DNA from: a virus | Lineage: Duplodnaviria > Heunggongvirae > Uroviricota > Caudoviricetes | Length of the DNA: 8,656 nucleotides | IMG/VR virus record: IMGVR_UViG_2675903495_000009 | Reading direction: 5' to 3' (one strand) | Shown: positions 481-8,656 of the stretch, piece by piece | Layout: every line of letters begins with the position of its first letter | Numbering within the stretch: position 1 is the stretch's first letter | The notes under the pieces: generated by a model | Seen by the model: the letters and a program-made list of their open reading frames with translations, nothing else | What the model was told of the DNA's origin: nothing | Database searches by the model: none | Made by a program: the position numbers and the translations under genes

Positions 481-816
481 ATGAAGTGGATTGTGATTGA
501 TACAGTTATCCAGCCATCATGCGGAATATCTTTTTCAGTCATATGGAGTAAAATAAAATTAATAATCTGGTATCAATCGGATGCTTTCTTACCTCCTGAA
601 AGTATATTTACACTGACTCACACAGGCATCATGCTCAATAACAAAGTGCTACCTGTAACCATTTACAACGTAGTACCATTCAATAAAACATTCTGGAATT
701 CAATCAAAAATAGCCAGGAATGCCCTACAAATACAGATAACGTATTGAATGAATGCTTTAATAACCGTTGCACTCTGCAAATATGTCCTTATGGACTAAA
801 ACAACAAAGTCCATAA
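481..816 (+). CDS. Hypothetical protein (111 aa, 5 Cys) in AT-rich cargo island, opposite strand to the phage genes
   Basis: ATG preceded by AAGGAA 6 nt upstream. A 111-codon open frame in roughly 33% GC DNA is unlikely by chance. 6 of 13 Ile codons are ATA. No recognisable domain. Confidence 0.35.
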
Positions 817-1676: not shown

Positions 1677-1753
1677 TGGCGCGCTGTACTGGATTCGAAC
1701 CAGTGACCGATTGCTTAGAAGGCAATTGCTCTGTCCGGCTGAGCTAACAACGC
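1677..1753 (-). tRNA. argO: tRNA-Arg (anticodon UCU)
   Basis: Cloverleaf read by hand: acceptor GCGTTGT/ACAGCGC, anticodon loop CUUCUAA, T-loop GGTTCGAATCC, 3' discriminator G + CCA encoded. Symbol given by positional analogy to the ileZ-argN-argO trio of Stx phages; uncertain. Confidence 0.85.
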
Positions 1754-1766
1754 ATGATGCAGATAA

Positions 1767-1843
1767 TGGACCGCCATCGGGGACTTGAACCCCGCGCAGC
1801 CAGCTTCGAAGGCTGGCGCTCTTTCCTGATGAGCTAATGGCGG
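1767..1843 (-). tRNA. argN: tRNA-Arg (anticodon UCG)
   Basis: Acceptor CCGCCAT/ATGGCGG, anticodon stem-loop CCAGC-CUUCGAA-GCUGG, T-arm CGGGG-TTCAAGT-CCCCG, CCA encoded. The 5' C is unusual, so the 5' end may be off by 1 nt. Symbol by positional analogy; uncertain. Confidence 0.8.
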
Positions 1844-1850
1844 TATGTGA

Positions 1851-1926
1851 TGGTGGCCCTTGCTGGATTTGAACCAGCGACCTGGCGATTATGAGTCGCT
1901 CGCTCTCACCACTGAGCTAAAGGGCC
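1851..1926 (-). tRNA. ileZ: tRNA with CAU anticodon, near-identical to E. coli tRNA-Ile2 (lysidine, reads AUA)
   Basis: GGCCCTTTAGCTCAGTGGTGAGAGCGAGCGACTCATAATCGCCAGGTCGCTGGTTCAAATCCAGCAAGGGCCACCA differs at only a few positions from ileX as I recall it. Ile2 versus Met cannot be settled from sequence alone. Confidence 0.85.
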
Positions 1927-3170: not shown

Positions 3171-3198
3171 AAATAAAAAAGCCTTCACTGCGGAAGGC
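3171..3198 (-). terminator. Rho-independent terminator candidate overlapping the stop of CDS 3185..3382
   Basis: Minus-strand gccttc-cgcagt-gaaggc hairpin (plus 3181..3198) followed by UUUUUUAUUU (plus 3171..3180). Confidence 0.5.
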
Positions 3199-3382
3199 GT
3201 CTGTAACAACCGAACTGATAGTCTGCCAGACCCGCCATAACCAGCTGGGTCAGTATTAACTGGCAGCGTTCGCGTGAAAGGTAAGTATTCTGCGCTATCT
3301 CCCCGACTGTCGCCGGTTCGGTAACGCTTAATTCATTAAACACCACTCTGGCGGTTTCTGTCATATCCTGCTGTTTTAGCAT
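3185..3382 (-). CDS. Small hypothetical protein (65 aa), possible winged-helix/HTH DNA-binding protein; first gene after PR'/tR'
   Basis: MLKQQDMTETARVVFNELSVTEPATVGEIAQNTYLSRERCQLILTQLVMAGL... with a ggaaaaggaaaag Shine-Dalgarno region upstream. The helix-turn-helix-like segment TVGEIAQNTYLSRERCQLIL is judged by eye. Confidence 0.5.
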   Translation of the reverse strand: MLKQQDMTETARVVFNELSVTEPATVGEIAQNTYLSRERCQLILTQLVMAGLADYQFGCYRRLPQ

Positions 3383-3606: not shown

Positions 3607-4354
3607 TTACCTAGTTACCTTTTTTAACTGCCGCTCAGCCCATGCTTCTTCAATATCAAACCGGGTCACCAGCGCATCATAAAATTTCTTAACTGTTTTT
3701 TCCCATGACGCGCGTGTTATCTGGTTTGTCACCTCGCATATAGCATTAAATGCCTCCGTTGATGGTAGTCTTTCATAGCCACGACCACCANNNNNNNNNN
3801 NNNNNNNNNNNNNNNNNNNNNNNNNNNNNNNNNNNNNNNNNNNNNNNNNNNNNNNNNNNNNNNNNNNNNNNNNNNNNNNNNNNNNNNNNNNNNNNNNNNN
3901 NNNNNNNNNNNNNNNNNNNNNNNNNNNNNNNNNNNNNNNNNNNNNNNNNNNNNNNNNNNNNNNNNNNNNNNNNNNNNNNNNNNNNNNNNNNNNNNNNNNN
4001 NNNNNNNNNNNNNNNNNNNNNNNNNNNNNNNNNNNNNNNNNNNNNNNNNNNNNNNNNNNNNNNNNNNNNNNCTACCGGTTTTATTTCTGCCGGAAGTTTT
4101 CTCAACGCCGCCACACGATCGCACCGACTGAGTGCATAATCTGCCAGTAATTCTGTTGCCCGCGCCCTGTCATTCATACTGATGCCCATTTTCCCCAGGA
4201 ACGCAGAAAACCCCATCTCAGCCCGATTCTGTGTCATGCCCTGCGCGGCCATCACATCAGTGATACTCAGCGCATCTTTTGACGTTGAGGCCGATGCATC
4301 GGTCAGGCAAGGGGATTTTGGGGAGTAGTATTTCGGTAAATCTTCCAGTTTCAT
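3607..4354 (-). CDS. Q: Late antiterminator Q, lambda-Q family (copy 2, adjacent to PR')
   Basis: N-terminus MKLEDLPKYYSPKSP...TDVMAAQGMTQNRAEMG resembles lambda Q (MRLESVAKFHSPKSP...TDVMAAMGMAQSQAGFG). C-terminal frame ...ASWEKTVKKFYDALVTRFDIEEAWAERQLKKVTR* resembles the lambda Q C-terminus. The interior 3791..4071 is masked. The span is 748 nt, not a multiple of 3, and about 38 codons longer than copy 1, so integrity is unverified. Confidence 0.7.
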
Positions 4355-4430: not shown

Positions 4431-4574
4431 NNNNNNNNNNNNNNNNNNNNNNNNNNNNNNNNNNNNNNNNNNNNNNNNNNNNNNNNNNNNNNNNNNNNNN
4501 NNNNNNNNNNNNNNNNNNNNNNNNNNNNNNNNNNNCACCGTCGGCGGATAAGGTAAAATAAACTCATGGCGCAT
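4351..4574 (-). pseudogene. rusA-like remnant (second copy): N-terminal and C-terminal segments but too short and out of frame
   Basis: N-terminus MRHEFILPYPPTV (RusA-like LPxPP start) and C-terminus ...RGQPVSGGRLGVKIYPIMHEEQVKK* (cf copy 1 ...RAQPVSGGRLGVKIYPIMLEGQVKK*). Only 224 nt span start to stop, including the 105-nt mask, versus about 360 nt for full RusA. Its TGA overlaps the Q2 ATG (ATGA). Depends on the mask length being true. Confidence 0.4.
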
Positions 4575-4816
4575 CAGCGCAGCACCTCCTGCACCAGTTT
4601 TTCAAACTTTCCGACTCTGGTTTCCAGCTCTGCCACACAGTCCACCAGCTCATCTACTGCTTTCTGTGCGCGATGCTTCGCCTGCATCAGTTCCCGAAGC
4701 GCGGGTACCATATCTTTACGGATAGCGTCTTTTGTTATGCCCGTTTTTTCGAGTTGTTCAGCATGACGCAGCATTTCCTGCGCGTGTTTACGCAATTGTT
4801 CAGGGGTAAAAGTCAT
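4574..4816 (-). CDS. Small hypothetical protein (80 aa from ATG at 4816), predicted helical and charged
   Basis: MTFTPEQLRKHAQEMLRHAEQLEKTG...AELETRVGKFEKLVQEVLR. The N-terminus resembles that of CDS 7868..8212. Its start overlaps the 3' end of Q1 by 17 nt. Confidence 0.45.
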   Translation of the reverse strand: MTFTPEQLRKHAQEMLRHAEQLEKTGITKDAIRKDMVPALRELMQAKHRAQKAVDELVDCVAELETRVGKFEKLVQEVLR

Positions 4817-5435
4817 TGTCTGGTTGTTCAAAAGAAACGCTCCATCTTACTGCTGTCAGTTCGTTTATTACTGTATCTGCGCGGATTGCCGGGCNNNNNN
4901 NNNNNNNNNNNNNNNNNNNNNNNNNNNNNNNNNNNNNNNNNNNNNNNNNNNNNNNNNNNNNNNNNNNNNNNNNNNNNNNNNNNNNNNNNNNNNNNNNNNN
5001 NNNNNNNNNNNNNNNNNNNNNNNNNNNNNNNNNNNNNNNNNNNNNNNNNNNNNNNNNNNNNNNNNNNNNNNNNNNNNNNNNNNNNNNNNNNNNNNNNNNN
5101 NNNNNNNNNNNNNNNNNNNNNNNNNNNNNNNNNNNNNNNNNNNNNNNNNNNNCTGCCGGTTTTATTTCTGCCGGGAGTTTTCTTAACGCCGCCACGCGAT
5201 CACACCGACTGAGTGCATATTCTGTCAGCAATTCTGTTGCCCGCTCTCTGTCATTCATACTAATGCCCATTTTCCCAAGGAACGCAGAAACCCCCATCTC
5301 AGCCCGATTCTGTGTCATGCCCTGCGCGGCCATCACATCAGTGATACTCAGCGCATCTTTCGACGTTGAGGCCGATGCATCAGTCAGGCCGGGGGATTTT
5401 GGGGAGTAGTATTTCGGTAAATCTTCCAGTTTCAT
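4800..5435 (-). CDS. Q: Late antiterminator Q, lambda-Q family (copy 1) with C-terminal extension
   Basis: 211 aa, in frame across the 258-nt mask. N-terminus about 95% identical to copy 2. The C-terminus ...IRADTVINELTAVRWSVSFEQPDNDFYP* runs about 16 aa past the position where lambda Q ends (...NILNAVTR*). Its ATG overlaps the rusA stop (ATGA). No PR'-like promoter follows it. Confidence 0.75.
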   Translation of the reverse strand: MKLEDLPKYYSPKSPGLTDASASTSKDALSITDVMAAQGMTQNRAEMGVSAFLGKMGISMNDRERATELLTEYALSRCDRVAALRKLPAEIKPAXXXXXXXXXXXXXXXXXXXXXXXXXXXXXXXXXXXXXXXXXXXXXXXXXXXXXXXXXXXXXXXXXXXXXXXXXXXXXXXXXXXXXXXPAIRADTVINELTAVRWSVSFEQPDNDFYP

Positions 5436-6906: not shown

Positions 6907-7191
6907 TTATCCAGTGACGGTAGTCGAGGCTAAGGGCTTTTTTAACCTCGCATCCGCGCCTGCGGTAACACTGAATGAGCCATTCGGCCTGTTCTTCAGT
7001 GCATGGGGGATGCTGGTACCAATCAGATTTAAATGCGTGAGAGCGCCGCCCGTGCCTGCTGGCAAAGACGGCTGAATTATCAGAATTGTGTAGTCTGGAA
7101 GGCAGTGGCTGACAATAGCGCCATTCTCAACGCGCACAGTATAGAGGCCATCTTCACTAAAAATTTCACGTAATTCTTCGATTTTCATCAA
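6907..7191 (-). CDS. Hypothetical small protein; only the first ~38 codons look protein-like (possible frameshifted gene)
   Basis: ATGATG start with AAGGA Shine-Dalgarno 8 nt upstream; MMKIEELREIFSEDGLYTVRVENGAIVSHCLPDYTILII then a low-complexity tail. An alternative frame is open and protein-like from about 7120 into the mask at 6834 but has no ATG/GTG/TTG. Confidence 0.3.
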   Translation of the reverse strand: MMKIEELREIFSEDGLYTVRVENGAIVSHCLPDYTILIIQPSLPAGTGGALTHLNLIGTSIPHALKNRPNGSFSVTAGADARLKKPLASTTVTG

Positions 7192-7516
7192 CAGAATCCT
7201 TCCAGATAAATAGCACTCCCCTGTTCGGGGTCCATCCCTCTTCTCCCTGCGCGCTACTTAAGTATTNNNNNNNNNNNNNNNNNNNNNNNNNNNNNNNNNN
7301 NNNNNNNNNNNNNNNNNNNNNNNNNNNNNNNNNNNNNNNNNNNNNNNNNNNNNNNNNNNNNNNNNNNNNNNNNNNNNNNNNNNNNNNNNNNNNNNNNNNN
7401 NNNNNNNNNNNNNNNNNNNNNNNNNNNNNNNNNNNNNNNNNNNNNNNNNNNNNNNNNNNNNNNNNNNNNNNNNNNNNNNNNNNNNNNNNNNNNNNNNNNN
7501 NNNNNNNNNNNNNNNN

Positions 7517-7579
7517 CACTATGACGGTTAAACAGATGACGATCAGGGCGATTAACATCGCCTTTTGCTGCTTCATAGC
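7517..7579 (-). CDS. hokD: Hok-family type I toxin, HokD/RelF-like (visible N-terminal 20 codons; rest inside mask 7267..7516)
   Basis: MKQQKAMLIALIVICLTVIV matches the HokD/RelF N-terminus as I recall it (MKQQKAMLIALIVICLTVIVTALVTRKDLCEV...). AAGGAG Shine-Dalgarno 9 nt upstream. Expected length about 50 aa, so the stop should fall near 7430 inside the mask. Confidence 0.8.
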
Positions 7580-7867
7580 CTGCTTCTCCTTGCCTTTCGG
7601 CACGTAAGAGGCTAACCTAGATTTGCCGTTCATAGATTGAGCCTCAGATTAATGTTAAGCGTCTTGCCGGACGCGTAATGTTAACTGGGGCTTTTCTCTA
7701 TCTGCCTTTTGGTGTTCATGCCTGAGACAGATAGCCTCAAGCACCCGCTGCAATTCTACTTAACTCTCCTTTTCCCGCAAACCGTTTTTATCCCCAGCGG
7801 CAAATCGAATACACCACCAGCGCCACCGCCATCGCAATTCCTACCGTTGTTAATGCTTCAGGCCAGG

Positions 7868-8212
7868 TCATCGTAAAATATCCTCCACGCTTATCAGTCC
7901 GTTCCGCTCCAGATAACTCATCGCCTTATCCGGTAATTTGCAGTCTGGCTTCGCTTTCCTCAGTTGCCAGGTTAACTGCTTTACCAGCATGGTTAACTCA
8001 TCGACCAGACGCTGATATCCCACTGGTTTGTATTCATGCAATTTACCGGCTGGCTCTGCTGCCAGCGATACCAGTGCGATTTCCAGAACAGCAATATCCA
8101 TCTTATATGTGCGGATGATGTCATGGTCGATTGTGCCCGGTATGCACAGTCTCTGTGCTTCAATAGTCTCCTCTGCGTGAGCTATTAACTGCTCTCTGGT
8201 AAAAGTCGTCAT
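7868..8212 (-). CDS. Hypothetical nin-region protein (114 aa)
   Basis: [23 protein letters not shown]... Shares the N-terminal MTTxTxE motif and an IAL(A/V)SL(E/A)AEP motif with the upstream 55-aa ORF. Its ATG overlaps the stop of that ORF (ATGA). Confidence 0.5.
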
Positions 8213-8376
8213 GCCGTAGCCCCTTCTTGATATTTTTCAAACCAGAACACAACCGGCTCTGCTTCCAGCGATGCCAGCGCAATCCGTGCCAGTTCCATTT
8301 GTTCACCACGGGTAAGCCCGTTTTCAAGCGGGTTTTTAATGAACAATTCAATACGTTCTTTGGTAATAGTGGTCAT
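8209..8376 (-). CDS. Hypothetical small acidic protein (55 aa), below the ORF-track cutoff
   Basis: Translated by hand: [55 protein letters not shown]. Strong Shine-Dalgarno (TAAGGAG, 6-nt spacer) that overlaps the stop of CDS 8387..8617. Confidence 0.45.
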
Positions 8377-8386
8377 GTGTTACTCC

Positions 8387-8617
8387 TTAACCCGCAGTGC
8401 TTTCAACTGATGAGGGGAACAAAATCTTTTCATCAAACCCTGCATTCATATCATGAACAGCAACACACCAATCCATCGACGAACGATTATCAAGAGCCTC
8501 CATGATTTCATCCATGCGGCGTAGGTCATACAGGTAAATGCTTTTATCGCCAATGGTGTAAAAGCCAATTTTTTTCGGTGATGGATGAGGTGTACTGGCA
8601 ATAGCGGACACTACCAT
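8387..8617 (-). CDS. Hypothetical protein (76 aa); first 10 codons lie in the right arm of the inverted repeat
   Basis: MVVSAIASTPHPSPKKIGFYTIGDKSIYLYDLRRMDEIMEALDNRSSMDWCVAVHDMNAGFDEKILFPSSVESTAG. No clear Shine-Dalgarno. An in-frame TAA four codons upstream rules out extension beyond the window. Confidence 0.35.
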   Translation of the reverse strand: MVVSAIASTPHPSPKKIGFYTIGDKSIYLYDLRRMDEIMEALDNRSSMDWCVAVHDMNAGFDEKILFPSSVESTAG

Positions 8618-8656
8618 TTGTTCTTTTTTTAAGCAGCCATCTGATGATATTTTTCC
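8586..8656. repeat. Right arm of the perfect 71-bp inverted repeat (partner 23..93)
   Basis: See partner entry; the match reaches the window edge. Confidence 0.8.

Follow-up and report, generated by a model that had tools for sequence, protein, structure and literature searches.

Two EaA-type leader genes and a probably unrelated phiP27 L20-family gene behind one apparent N-terminal motif in a defective lambdoid prophage segment

The EaA protein of phage P22 is long (317 aa): its leader is followed by a middle region, and its C-terminus is DUF551-like. EaA-like, DUF551-containing proteins occur in P22-like and lambdoid phages, for example as hkaE of HK620, and are encoded in accessory ea/nin gene arrays. 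The Ea22 proteins of lambda and Stx phages (Ead_Ea22, PF13935) are mosaics of the same design, in which a short segment at the N-terminus precedes a helical region and C-terminal domains, DUF551 among them, that can be swapped (PMC10834534), but their sequences are unrelated to those of the EaA-like proteins. Phage phiP27 carries another small gene, L20, which follows the gene of the replicative helicase (L19) and precedes that of a short Q-like protein (L21). Boundary or linker sequences are known from lambdoid phages as 20-30 nt of conserved DNA at module edges, with abrupt transitions in identity and with recombinant products (Susskind and Botstein, 1978; Clark et al., 2001, for HK620), and the concept as applied to lambdoid modules has been summarised (PMC3029335; PMC2327257). 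Exchange at such short conserved sequences is a recognised minority route to lambdoid mosaicism (PMC3029335; PMC2327257), and the Red and RecET systems are proficient with short or diverged homology (PMC2327257).

The window, a stretch of 8,656 nucleotides, carries on its minus strand a defective composite lambdoid prophage segment. Three small ORFs in it, here P1, P2 and P3, had been grouped by a common MTT-x-T-x-EQL start, and all three lie on the minus strand where the original prediction had placed them:

4574-4831, minus strand: P1, 85 aa from a TTG, with an internal ATG at 4816 that gives an 80-aa form (4574-4816); phiP27 L20 family, predicted long helix
7868-8212, minus strand: P2, 114-aa EaA-like protein with a leader (aa 1-54), a disordered linker and a conserved C-terminal module (ELTMLVKQL...)
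8209-8376, minus strand: P3, 55-aa leader-only EaA-like gene with leader residues 1-41 and a 14-aa tail

In RefSeq Escherichia coli genomes they are hypothetical proteins (P1, WP_001064800.1, with the same coordinates in matching genomes; P2, WP_000206826.1; P3, WP_000207997.1). The grouping, tempting but wrong, probably merged two unrelated things: an EaA-leader pair, P2 and P3, subject to shuffling mediated by short DNA boxes, and P1, a member of the phiP27 L20 family at a prophage junction. The pattern is ordinary lambdoid-phage mosaicism and not a new kind of system. Scans of the three proteins against Pfam and NCBIfam returned zero matches above the curated cut-offs, none of the three matched the Ead_Ea22 Pfam family, and PADLOC, which was used without a curated cut-off, gave weak coiled-coil-type matches alone (E >= 0.0027); for P1 these scans yielded coiled-coil noise. 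In related loci, Ea22-family genes lie next to EaA-like ones.

P2 and P3 share the location type of the EaA-like proteins and resemble each other at both the protein and the DNA level. They align by BLASTP with E = 1e-5, their protein score was reached by one of 5000 shuffles, and their best nucleotide match (26/29) falls exactly at a motif, IAL(A/V)SL(E/A)AEP, that the original prediction correctly reported in both sequences; none of 2000 shuffles reached it. In each protein this motif closes the leader and is followed by a variable module. When the 5' nucleotide sequences of all three genes were compared, similarity appeared for the P2-P3 pair alone, and its best match was again this box, not the start. 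Four PHROG profiles (phrog_660, 60, 5117 and 3323) are also matched by both P2 and P3, at corresponding positions, and make up the very set matched by P22 EaA (60, 3323, 660, 5117); the E-values are 8e-43 (phrog_660), 3e-9 (phrog_5117) and 1.5e-7 (phrog_60) for P2, and 1e-19 (phrog_3323) and 4e-18 (phrog_60), with a further match to phrog_660, for P3. The N-terminus of P3 is identical to that of P22 EaA at 38 of 44 positions (86%, EaA residues 1-44; E = 8e-24), and its phage homologues carry the annotations EaA, Eaa, DUF551 and hkaE. Thus both proteins are EaA-type leaders by their N-terminal sequence and PHROG matches. As judged from these comparisons, they are true paralogues within the N-terminal ~45-55 aa, and the shared part is the P22 EaA-type leader.

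P3 and P2 would accordingly represent tandem members of the EaA family, which comprises mosaic accessory proteins encoded by P22-like and lambdoid prophages. P3 corresponds to the leader of P22 EaA alone and may be a leader-only remnant, whereas P2 would have a different leader type joined directly to its conserved C-terminal module. Compared with P22 EaA, P2 thus differs in leader type and in carrying a different, short C-terminal module, and no Pfam domain was detected in either P2 or P3. In the AlphaFold2 model of P2, a hairpin of two helices (residues 6-26 and 30-51, pLDDT ~90) is followed by residues with pLDDT below 50 (56-62) and then by a three-helix C-terminal module, so that the EaA leader is predicted to be an N-terminal two-helix hairpin of ~40-55 aa. 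Downstream of P2, a short hydrophobic ORF travels with the C-terminal module:

7788-7871, minus strand: hydrophobic 27-aa ORF, whose ATG overlaps the P2 stop (ATGA)

This ORF has no match among the PHROG profiles, and its nucleotide identity is 95-100% across the four relatives compared.

The leaders share a layout consisting of a conserved start (MTTxTKEQL), a variable core of 25-40 aa and the conserved IALxSLxAEP end. The first ~7 and the last ~10 codons are conserved in both protein and DNA, and the cores between them fall into discrete, unalignable types. Within the box at the leader end, the columns I, A, L, S, L and A are invariant or nearly so in 15 leader types. Each of the two DNA boxes occurs exactly twice in the window, where none would be expected by chance:

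8356-8376, minus strand: 5' start box of P3, ATGACCACTATTACCAAAGAA, a pattern match (0 expected by chance), identical in P22 eaa
8192-8212, minus strand: 5' start box of P2, ATGACGACTTTTACCAGAGAG, a pattern match
8255-8283, minus strand: IALxSLxAEP box of P3, ATTGCGCTGGCATCGCTGGAAGCAGAGCC
8052-8080, minus strand: IALxSLxAEP box of P2, ATCGCACTGGTATCGCTGGCAGCAGAGCC, a mosaic breakpoint

Ahead of eaa-like genes, a junction of Shine-Dalgarno sequence, stop and start codons (GAGGACTAACMCATGACCACT) is conserved despite unrelated upstream genes. A ClpX-type N-degron was considered for the N-terminal TTxTKE and dropped, as the residues do not fit the published motif classes.

The start M-T/A-T-x-T-K-E... 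could in principle be a translation-initiation or early-codon feature of small early genes, marking neither homology nor recombination. Upstream of P3, an unrelated gene for an 87-aa protein (phrog_1714) has MATLTKKEQ as its native start, and the start boxes are A/T-rich and lie behind good Shine-Dalgarno sequences, as such a feature would predict. However, the start is confined to three gene families across 109 kb of related loci (a biased set), the Met of P1 is probably internal, and neither the IALxSLxAEP box nor the breakpoints described below are accounted for, which makes this explanation highly improbable. The reading of P2 and P3 as EaA-type leaders bounded by two conserved boxes is retained in what follows.

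The relatives of P2 are mosaics. Each of the 120 listed shares one half of P2, N-terminal or C-terminal, and 79 of them have a recognisable leader; these 79 comprise 14 leader types (about 10 clearly distinct) and 20 downstream types in 38 combinations, with the P2 C-terminal module behind nine leader types, counts that are biased in that the sample was retrieved entirely as matches to P2. The DNA of window P2 was aligned with that of four natural relatives in which other leaders precede the P2 C-terminal module, and nucleotide identity to window P2 varied by segment as follows:

First 21 nt of the gene: 62-86%
Variable core of the leader: 16-35%, that is, random
30-nt IALxSLxAEP box: 83-97%
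C-terminal module: 180/180 nt identical in three relatives, 167/180 in the fourth

Identity thus changes abruptly at 29-30 nt of conserved DNA, the IALxSLxAEP box, with an identical sequence on its 3' side and an unalignable one on its 5' side. Natural recombinants have their crossover inside the same stretch. P0151 (101 aa), seen on 13 contigs that were read, has the sequence of P3 as far as ATCGCTGG and that of P2 from there on; both it and P0152 consist of a P3 leader and a P2 tail, and the DNA of L014 switches parent within ATCGCTGG. On this sequence evidence, P0151 appears to be the product of a deletion by crossover between the two box copies (8255-8283 and 8052-8080). The paralogy of P2 and P3, the sharp breakpoints and the P3::P2 product at the box together support, for this pair, the earlier suggestion that the shared sequence is a module boundary used as a recombination linker. 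As for the described lambdoid boundary sequences, short conserved DNA, abrupt transitions and recombinant products coincide; the stronger box, however, lies within the coding sequence of a gene, where two domains meet, whereas the lambdoid boundary and linker sequences lie at gene boundaries.

The two DNA boxes, above all the IALxSLxAEP box, may therefore serve as short-homology crossover sites through which leader cassettes and downstream modules would be reshuffled between co-resident prophages, via phage Red/RecT/Erf-type or host recombination; we infer the use of the boxes by recombinases from the positions of the breakpoints. A caveat is that constraint on the protein alone could keep the boxes conserved, and that selection could sharpen the junctions left by illegitimate events. 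In its full form, this alternative holds that the boxes are kept solely as the base of the hairpin and are not recombination substrates, the joints being random illegitimate recombination events of which those in frame and functional at a domain boundary were selected. It agrees with the prevailing view that conserved sequences are absent from most mosaic boundaries in phages (PMC3029335), and with the position of the box, which closes a predicted helix just before the disordered linker and so marks a natural domain boundary. However, the crossovers fall inside 26-29/29 nt of homology, the endpoints of the P3::P2 deletion lie within the two box copies, and the ~30-nt box spans the whole fall in identity from 100% to random, forming a "shoulder" of 83-97% as for homologous or homeologous exchange (PMC2327257). 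An origin of the boxes in protein constraint alone is consequently unlikely, and box-mediated exchange is the reading preferred here. An extension of it would make the EaA leader a dedicated diversification cassette, in which the variable hairpin tip (about 10 discrete types) sets target or partner specificity and the boxes are kept partly because they let prophages that share a host exchange tips and effector modules through recombination at short homologies. This proposal is decidedly doubtful; if true, the cassette would amount to recombination-based shuffling of specificity for an accessory function such as anti-defence or host takeover. In either case, P2 and P3 offer a clean intragenic instance of lambdoid mosaicism at boundary sequences, in which both parents and the recombinant are visible and which is a possible test substrate for short-homology recombination.

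P1 differs from this pair beginning with its start codon. RefSeq places the start at TTG 4831, five codons upstream of the "MTFT" that had suggested the common motif, and the 120 listed cluster representatives all have 85 aa except four (87, 86, 86 and 83 aa). A ribosome-binding sequence precedes the TTG:

4840-4843, minus strand: GGAG Shine-Dalgarno sequence, 8 nt upstream of the P1 TTG, conserved in SE11 and phiP27

No Shine-Dalgarno-like sequence lies upstream of ATG 4816, and diverged homologues have no Met at that position (MNNRTITVSPEQL, MKQQQVISPTPEQL). Because of the RefSeq TTG, the GGAG before it, the lack of such a sequence before the ATG and the missing Met in the diverged homologues, the real start of P1 is probably TTG 4831 and "MTFT" is probably internal. 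The three ORFs thus do resemble each other near their N-termini, as first reported, but in P1 the resemblance probably does not concern the N-terminus itself.

By sequence, P1 is an already catalogued gene, probably unrelated to the EaA leaders. It is 95% identical to phiP27 L20 (NP_543072.1) over 80 aa and matches PHROG 2565 (E = 8e-32, residues 1-79) and PHROG 2539, neither of which is matched by P2 or P3. The family is small: among 1.84 billion representative proteins, searched exhaustively, only 33 relatives turned up. It occurs in two forms, either as standalone proteins of 80-93 aa or as the C-terminal ~75 aa of proteins of 170-265 aa; phage examples are gp10 of Shigella phage 75/02 and Lys8385Vzw_52. 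A (T/S)PExL element is conserved at the helix start and preceded by variable residues, often ~100-190 aa into the longer proteins. K39, P43 and D64 are invariant in an alignment of 26 sequences, and P1 both matches the family over its full length and retains this core. P1 differs from the SE11 allele by 24 synonymous and 5 non-synonymous codon differences, a ratio that implies purifying selection. AlphaFold2 models residues 10-84 as one long helix (pLDDT 87), and a likely role for P1 would be in oligomerisation or partner binding. The longer relatives gave zero matches above cut-off in Pfam. A Zn-ribbon part in the middle of these relatives matches endonuclease VII-like and Lar-like PHROGs. 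A search of PDB sequences with the P1 profile, P2 and one long P1 relative found no relatives, and Foldseek comparison of the P1 and P2 models with BFVD gave no match at E <= 0.001. Folds as generic as one long helix or a helical hairpin make such structure comparison uninformative.

The reading that unites the three ORFs as paralogues in one family of small proteins, with the MTT-x-T-x-EQL start as its hallmark, draws on the similarity of P1 to P2. BLASTP aligns these two with 16/33 identities and E = 6e-4 (one comparison), with a shuffle p of 0.0026, and hhalign aligns the two families in register over 20 N-terminal columns. In the predicted structures, a hairpin for the leader of P2 and one long helix for P1, the Thr is directly followed by the beginning of the helix in both. 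Each of these points is weakened by others. The hhalign probability over those 20 columns is 3%, and P1 and P3 give no BLASTP alignment at all (shuffle p = 0.43). The commoner P1 allele scores lower against P2 (E = 0.004), having Gln where the window allele has His, so the His residues that raise the score are allele-specific. The motif is internal in the P1 family, the start codon of P1 itself lying five codons upstream, and the PHROG sets of P1 and of P2 and P3 are disjoint. P1 has neither the start box nor the IALxSLxAEP box, neither pattern being matched even with 3 mismatches allowed, and at its 5' end there is no nucleotide similarity to P2 or P3 beyond that due to shared amino acids, synonymous positions being different. 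P1 thus does not belong among the EaA-type leaders by sequence match or by box. Given the many ORF pairs that a reader could pick, the P1-P2 similarity is not significant, although with a single-test p of ~0.003 an ancient helix common to both may exist.

A single family of three is therefore already largely refuted and appears extremely unlikely. The notion of a paralogous small-protein family survives for P2 and P3, whose similarity is significant at the protein and DNA levels, and is lost for P1. Helix N-capping provides a basis for reading F-T-x-E-Q-L as a common N-cap/hydrophobic-staple motif. The FT-x-EQL resemblance of P1 to the leaders is best read, on the predicted models, as this same helix N-cap/hydrophobic-staple motif plus chance. 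P1 is accordingly treated below as a phiP27 L20-family gene.

The surroundings of P1 had been taken to place its 80-aa form exactly at the chimeric junction of a Q gene, Q1, and to have it overlap the extended 3' end of Q1. They contain the following features:

4828-4894, minus strand: 3' remnant of a phiP27-type replicative DNA helicase gene, which runs into masked bases and whose TGA stop overlaps the P1 TTG (TTGA)
4895-5152, no strand: masked run of N, under which the helicase remnant meets the 5' part of Q1 (the latter readable at 5153-5435)
4536-4574, minus strand: start of a second rusA copy, MRHEFILPYPPTV..., whose ATG overlaps the P1 TGA by 1 nt, arranged as in L001 (helicase-P1-RusA-Q)

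Bases 4832-4894 encode the helicase C-terminus PGNPRRYSNKRTDSSKMERFF*, identical to that of the L001 helicase, and the remnant region has 99.7% nucleotide identity to L001 and L002. The 211-aa "Q1" ORF exists only by reading across the N-run into out-of-frame helicase sequence, and its overlap with P1 is an artefact of calling ORFs through masked bases. Going upstream, at least 64 nt of native helicase sequence separate the P1 start from the junction, which thus does not coincide with the shared motif; the Q1::helicase breakpoint would fall somewhere within 4895-5152. The linker proposal, borne out at the module end of P2 and P3 by the breakpoints and the P3::P2 crossover, thus fails for P1, which has no boxes and no junction at its start.

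With the helicase C-terminus upstream and the rusA' start at its stop, P1 is in its native context. It directly follows the replicative helicase with a 4-nt overlap and directly precedes RusA or Q, and in each of 25 rows sampled from 170 matching E. coli genomes its neighbour is a helicase gene or a RusA/Q gene; the annotated regions inspected, together with phiP27, have the order helicase-P1-(RusA)-Q. Translation of P1 would be coupled to that of the replicative helicase on one side and of RusA on the other. Its position is the same as that of L20 in phiP27, whereas downstream RusA takes the place of the short Q-like L21, and of the helicase upstream only the 3' end persists, joined to part of a foreign Q. 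The arrangement Q1-helicase remnant-P1 has no record among 5,426 complete E. coli genomes. The Q sequence at 5153-5435 belongs to a Qin/Rac-like array (P3-P2-hok/sok-DUF968-rusA-Q), and a phiP27-like segment (helicase 3' end-P1-rusA-Q) may have been joined to the truncated Q of this Qin/Rac-like prophage, which would be why P1 lies between two Q genes. The ORF is hence placed in the phiP27 L20 family, and its odd position is accounted for by a prophage-prophage junction.

Both ends of the window are IS600 ends in inverted orientation, so the whole segment is bracketed by IS600 copies:

1-93 and 8586-8656, inverted orientation: IS600 end sequence, 100% identical to one IS600 end, as in the annotated relative locus L001
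8387-8585, minus strand: phrog_1714 gene upstream of the EaA-like gene P3, natively 87 aa, with the native start MATLTKKEQAWL

This bracketing suggests a Shigella-like, IS-rich host. The IS600 insertion at 8585/8586 interrupts the phrog_1714 gene, whose native protein start resembles the start of the leaders shared by P3 and the second EaA-like gene, P2; the protein itself is unrelated to the leaders.

Three related loci (L010, L012 and L014) have a second conserved junction, GCTGGYATTCGCATMRAAGGAGAGTGAKATG, upstream of their EaA-like genes, where the coding sequence of Ead/Ea22-like genes runs out (...GIRI(K/E)GE*). Because this junction stands before differing downstream genes, it is a candidate for a further boundary sequence beside those of the EaA-like leader. 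Among related proteins outside the window, P0137 starts with MATLTKEERFTKEQL; this resembles a start box that has been duplicated or is a hybrid. Three others (P0121, P0122 and P0144) are P3-P2 read-through fusions, representing either frameshift variants or sequencing errors.

The region downstream of P2 contains a short ORF followed by elements of a sok/hok type:

7788-7871, minus strand: 27-aa hydrophobic ORF, its ATG overlapping the P2 stop
7571-7746, minus strand: sok antitoxin RNA (Rfam, 112 bits)
about 7166-7633: mok/hok-like ORF, partly masked, accompanying the sok RNA

Between the window and the four relatives used for comparison, the 27-aa ORF shows 95-100% nucleotide identity; it carries no annotation in the RefSeq region inspected, and a PHROG search gave no match. 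The sok RNA and the mok/hok-like ORF lie just 3' of it.

Masked runs (N-runs) lie inside the second copies of rusA and Q (rusA' and Q2), and were compared with L001, which is 99.3-99.7% identical:

4431-4535: N-run inside rusA'
3791-4071: N-run inside Q2

These runs are shorter than their L001 counterparts by 151 nt and 74 nt, respectively, and in both genes the N- and C-terminal parts are in different frames. In three other N-runs, compared with more diverged relatives, the length differences are multiples of 3. Either deletions have made pseudogenes of both rusA' and Q2, or the masks do not preserve the length of the sequence they hide.

The remaining features lie towards the other end of the window:

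481-816, plus strand: iraM anti-adapter gene, identified by colinearity with L001
842-1031, minus strand: STnc100 sRNA (Rfam, 132 bits)
1677-1926, minus strand: three tRNA genes of the prophage: Arg-tct, Arg-tcg and one of Met/Ile type with a CAT anticodon
1967-3034: phiP27-like DNA methyltransferase gene
3185-3382: small L23-like gene

The STnc100 sRNA adjoins iraM, and the three tRNA genes are located downstream of the methyltransferase and L23-like genes.
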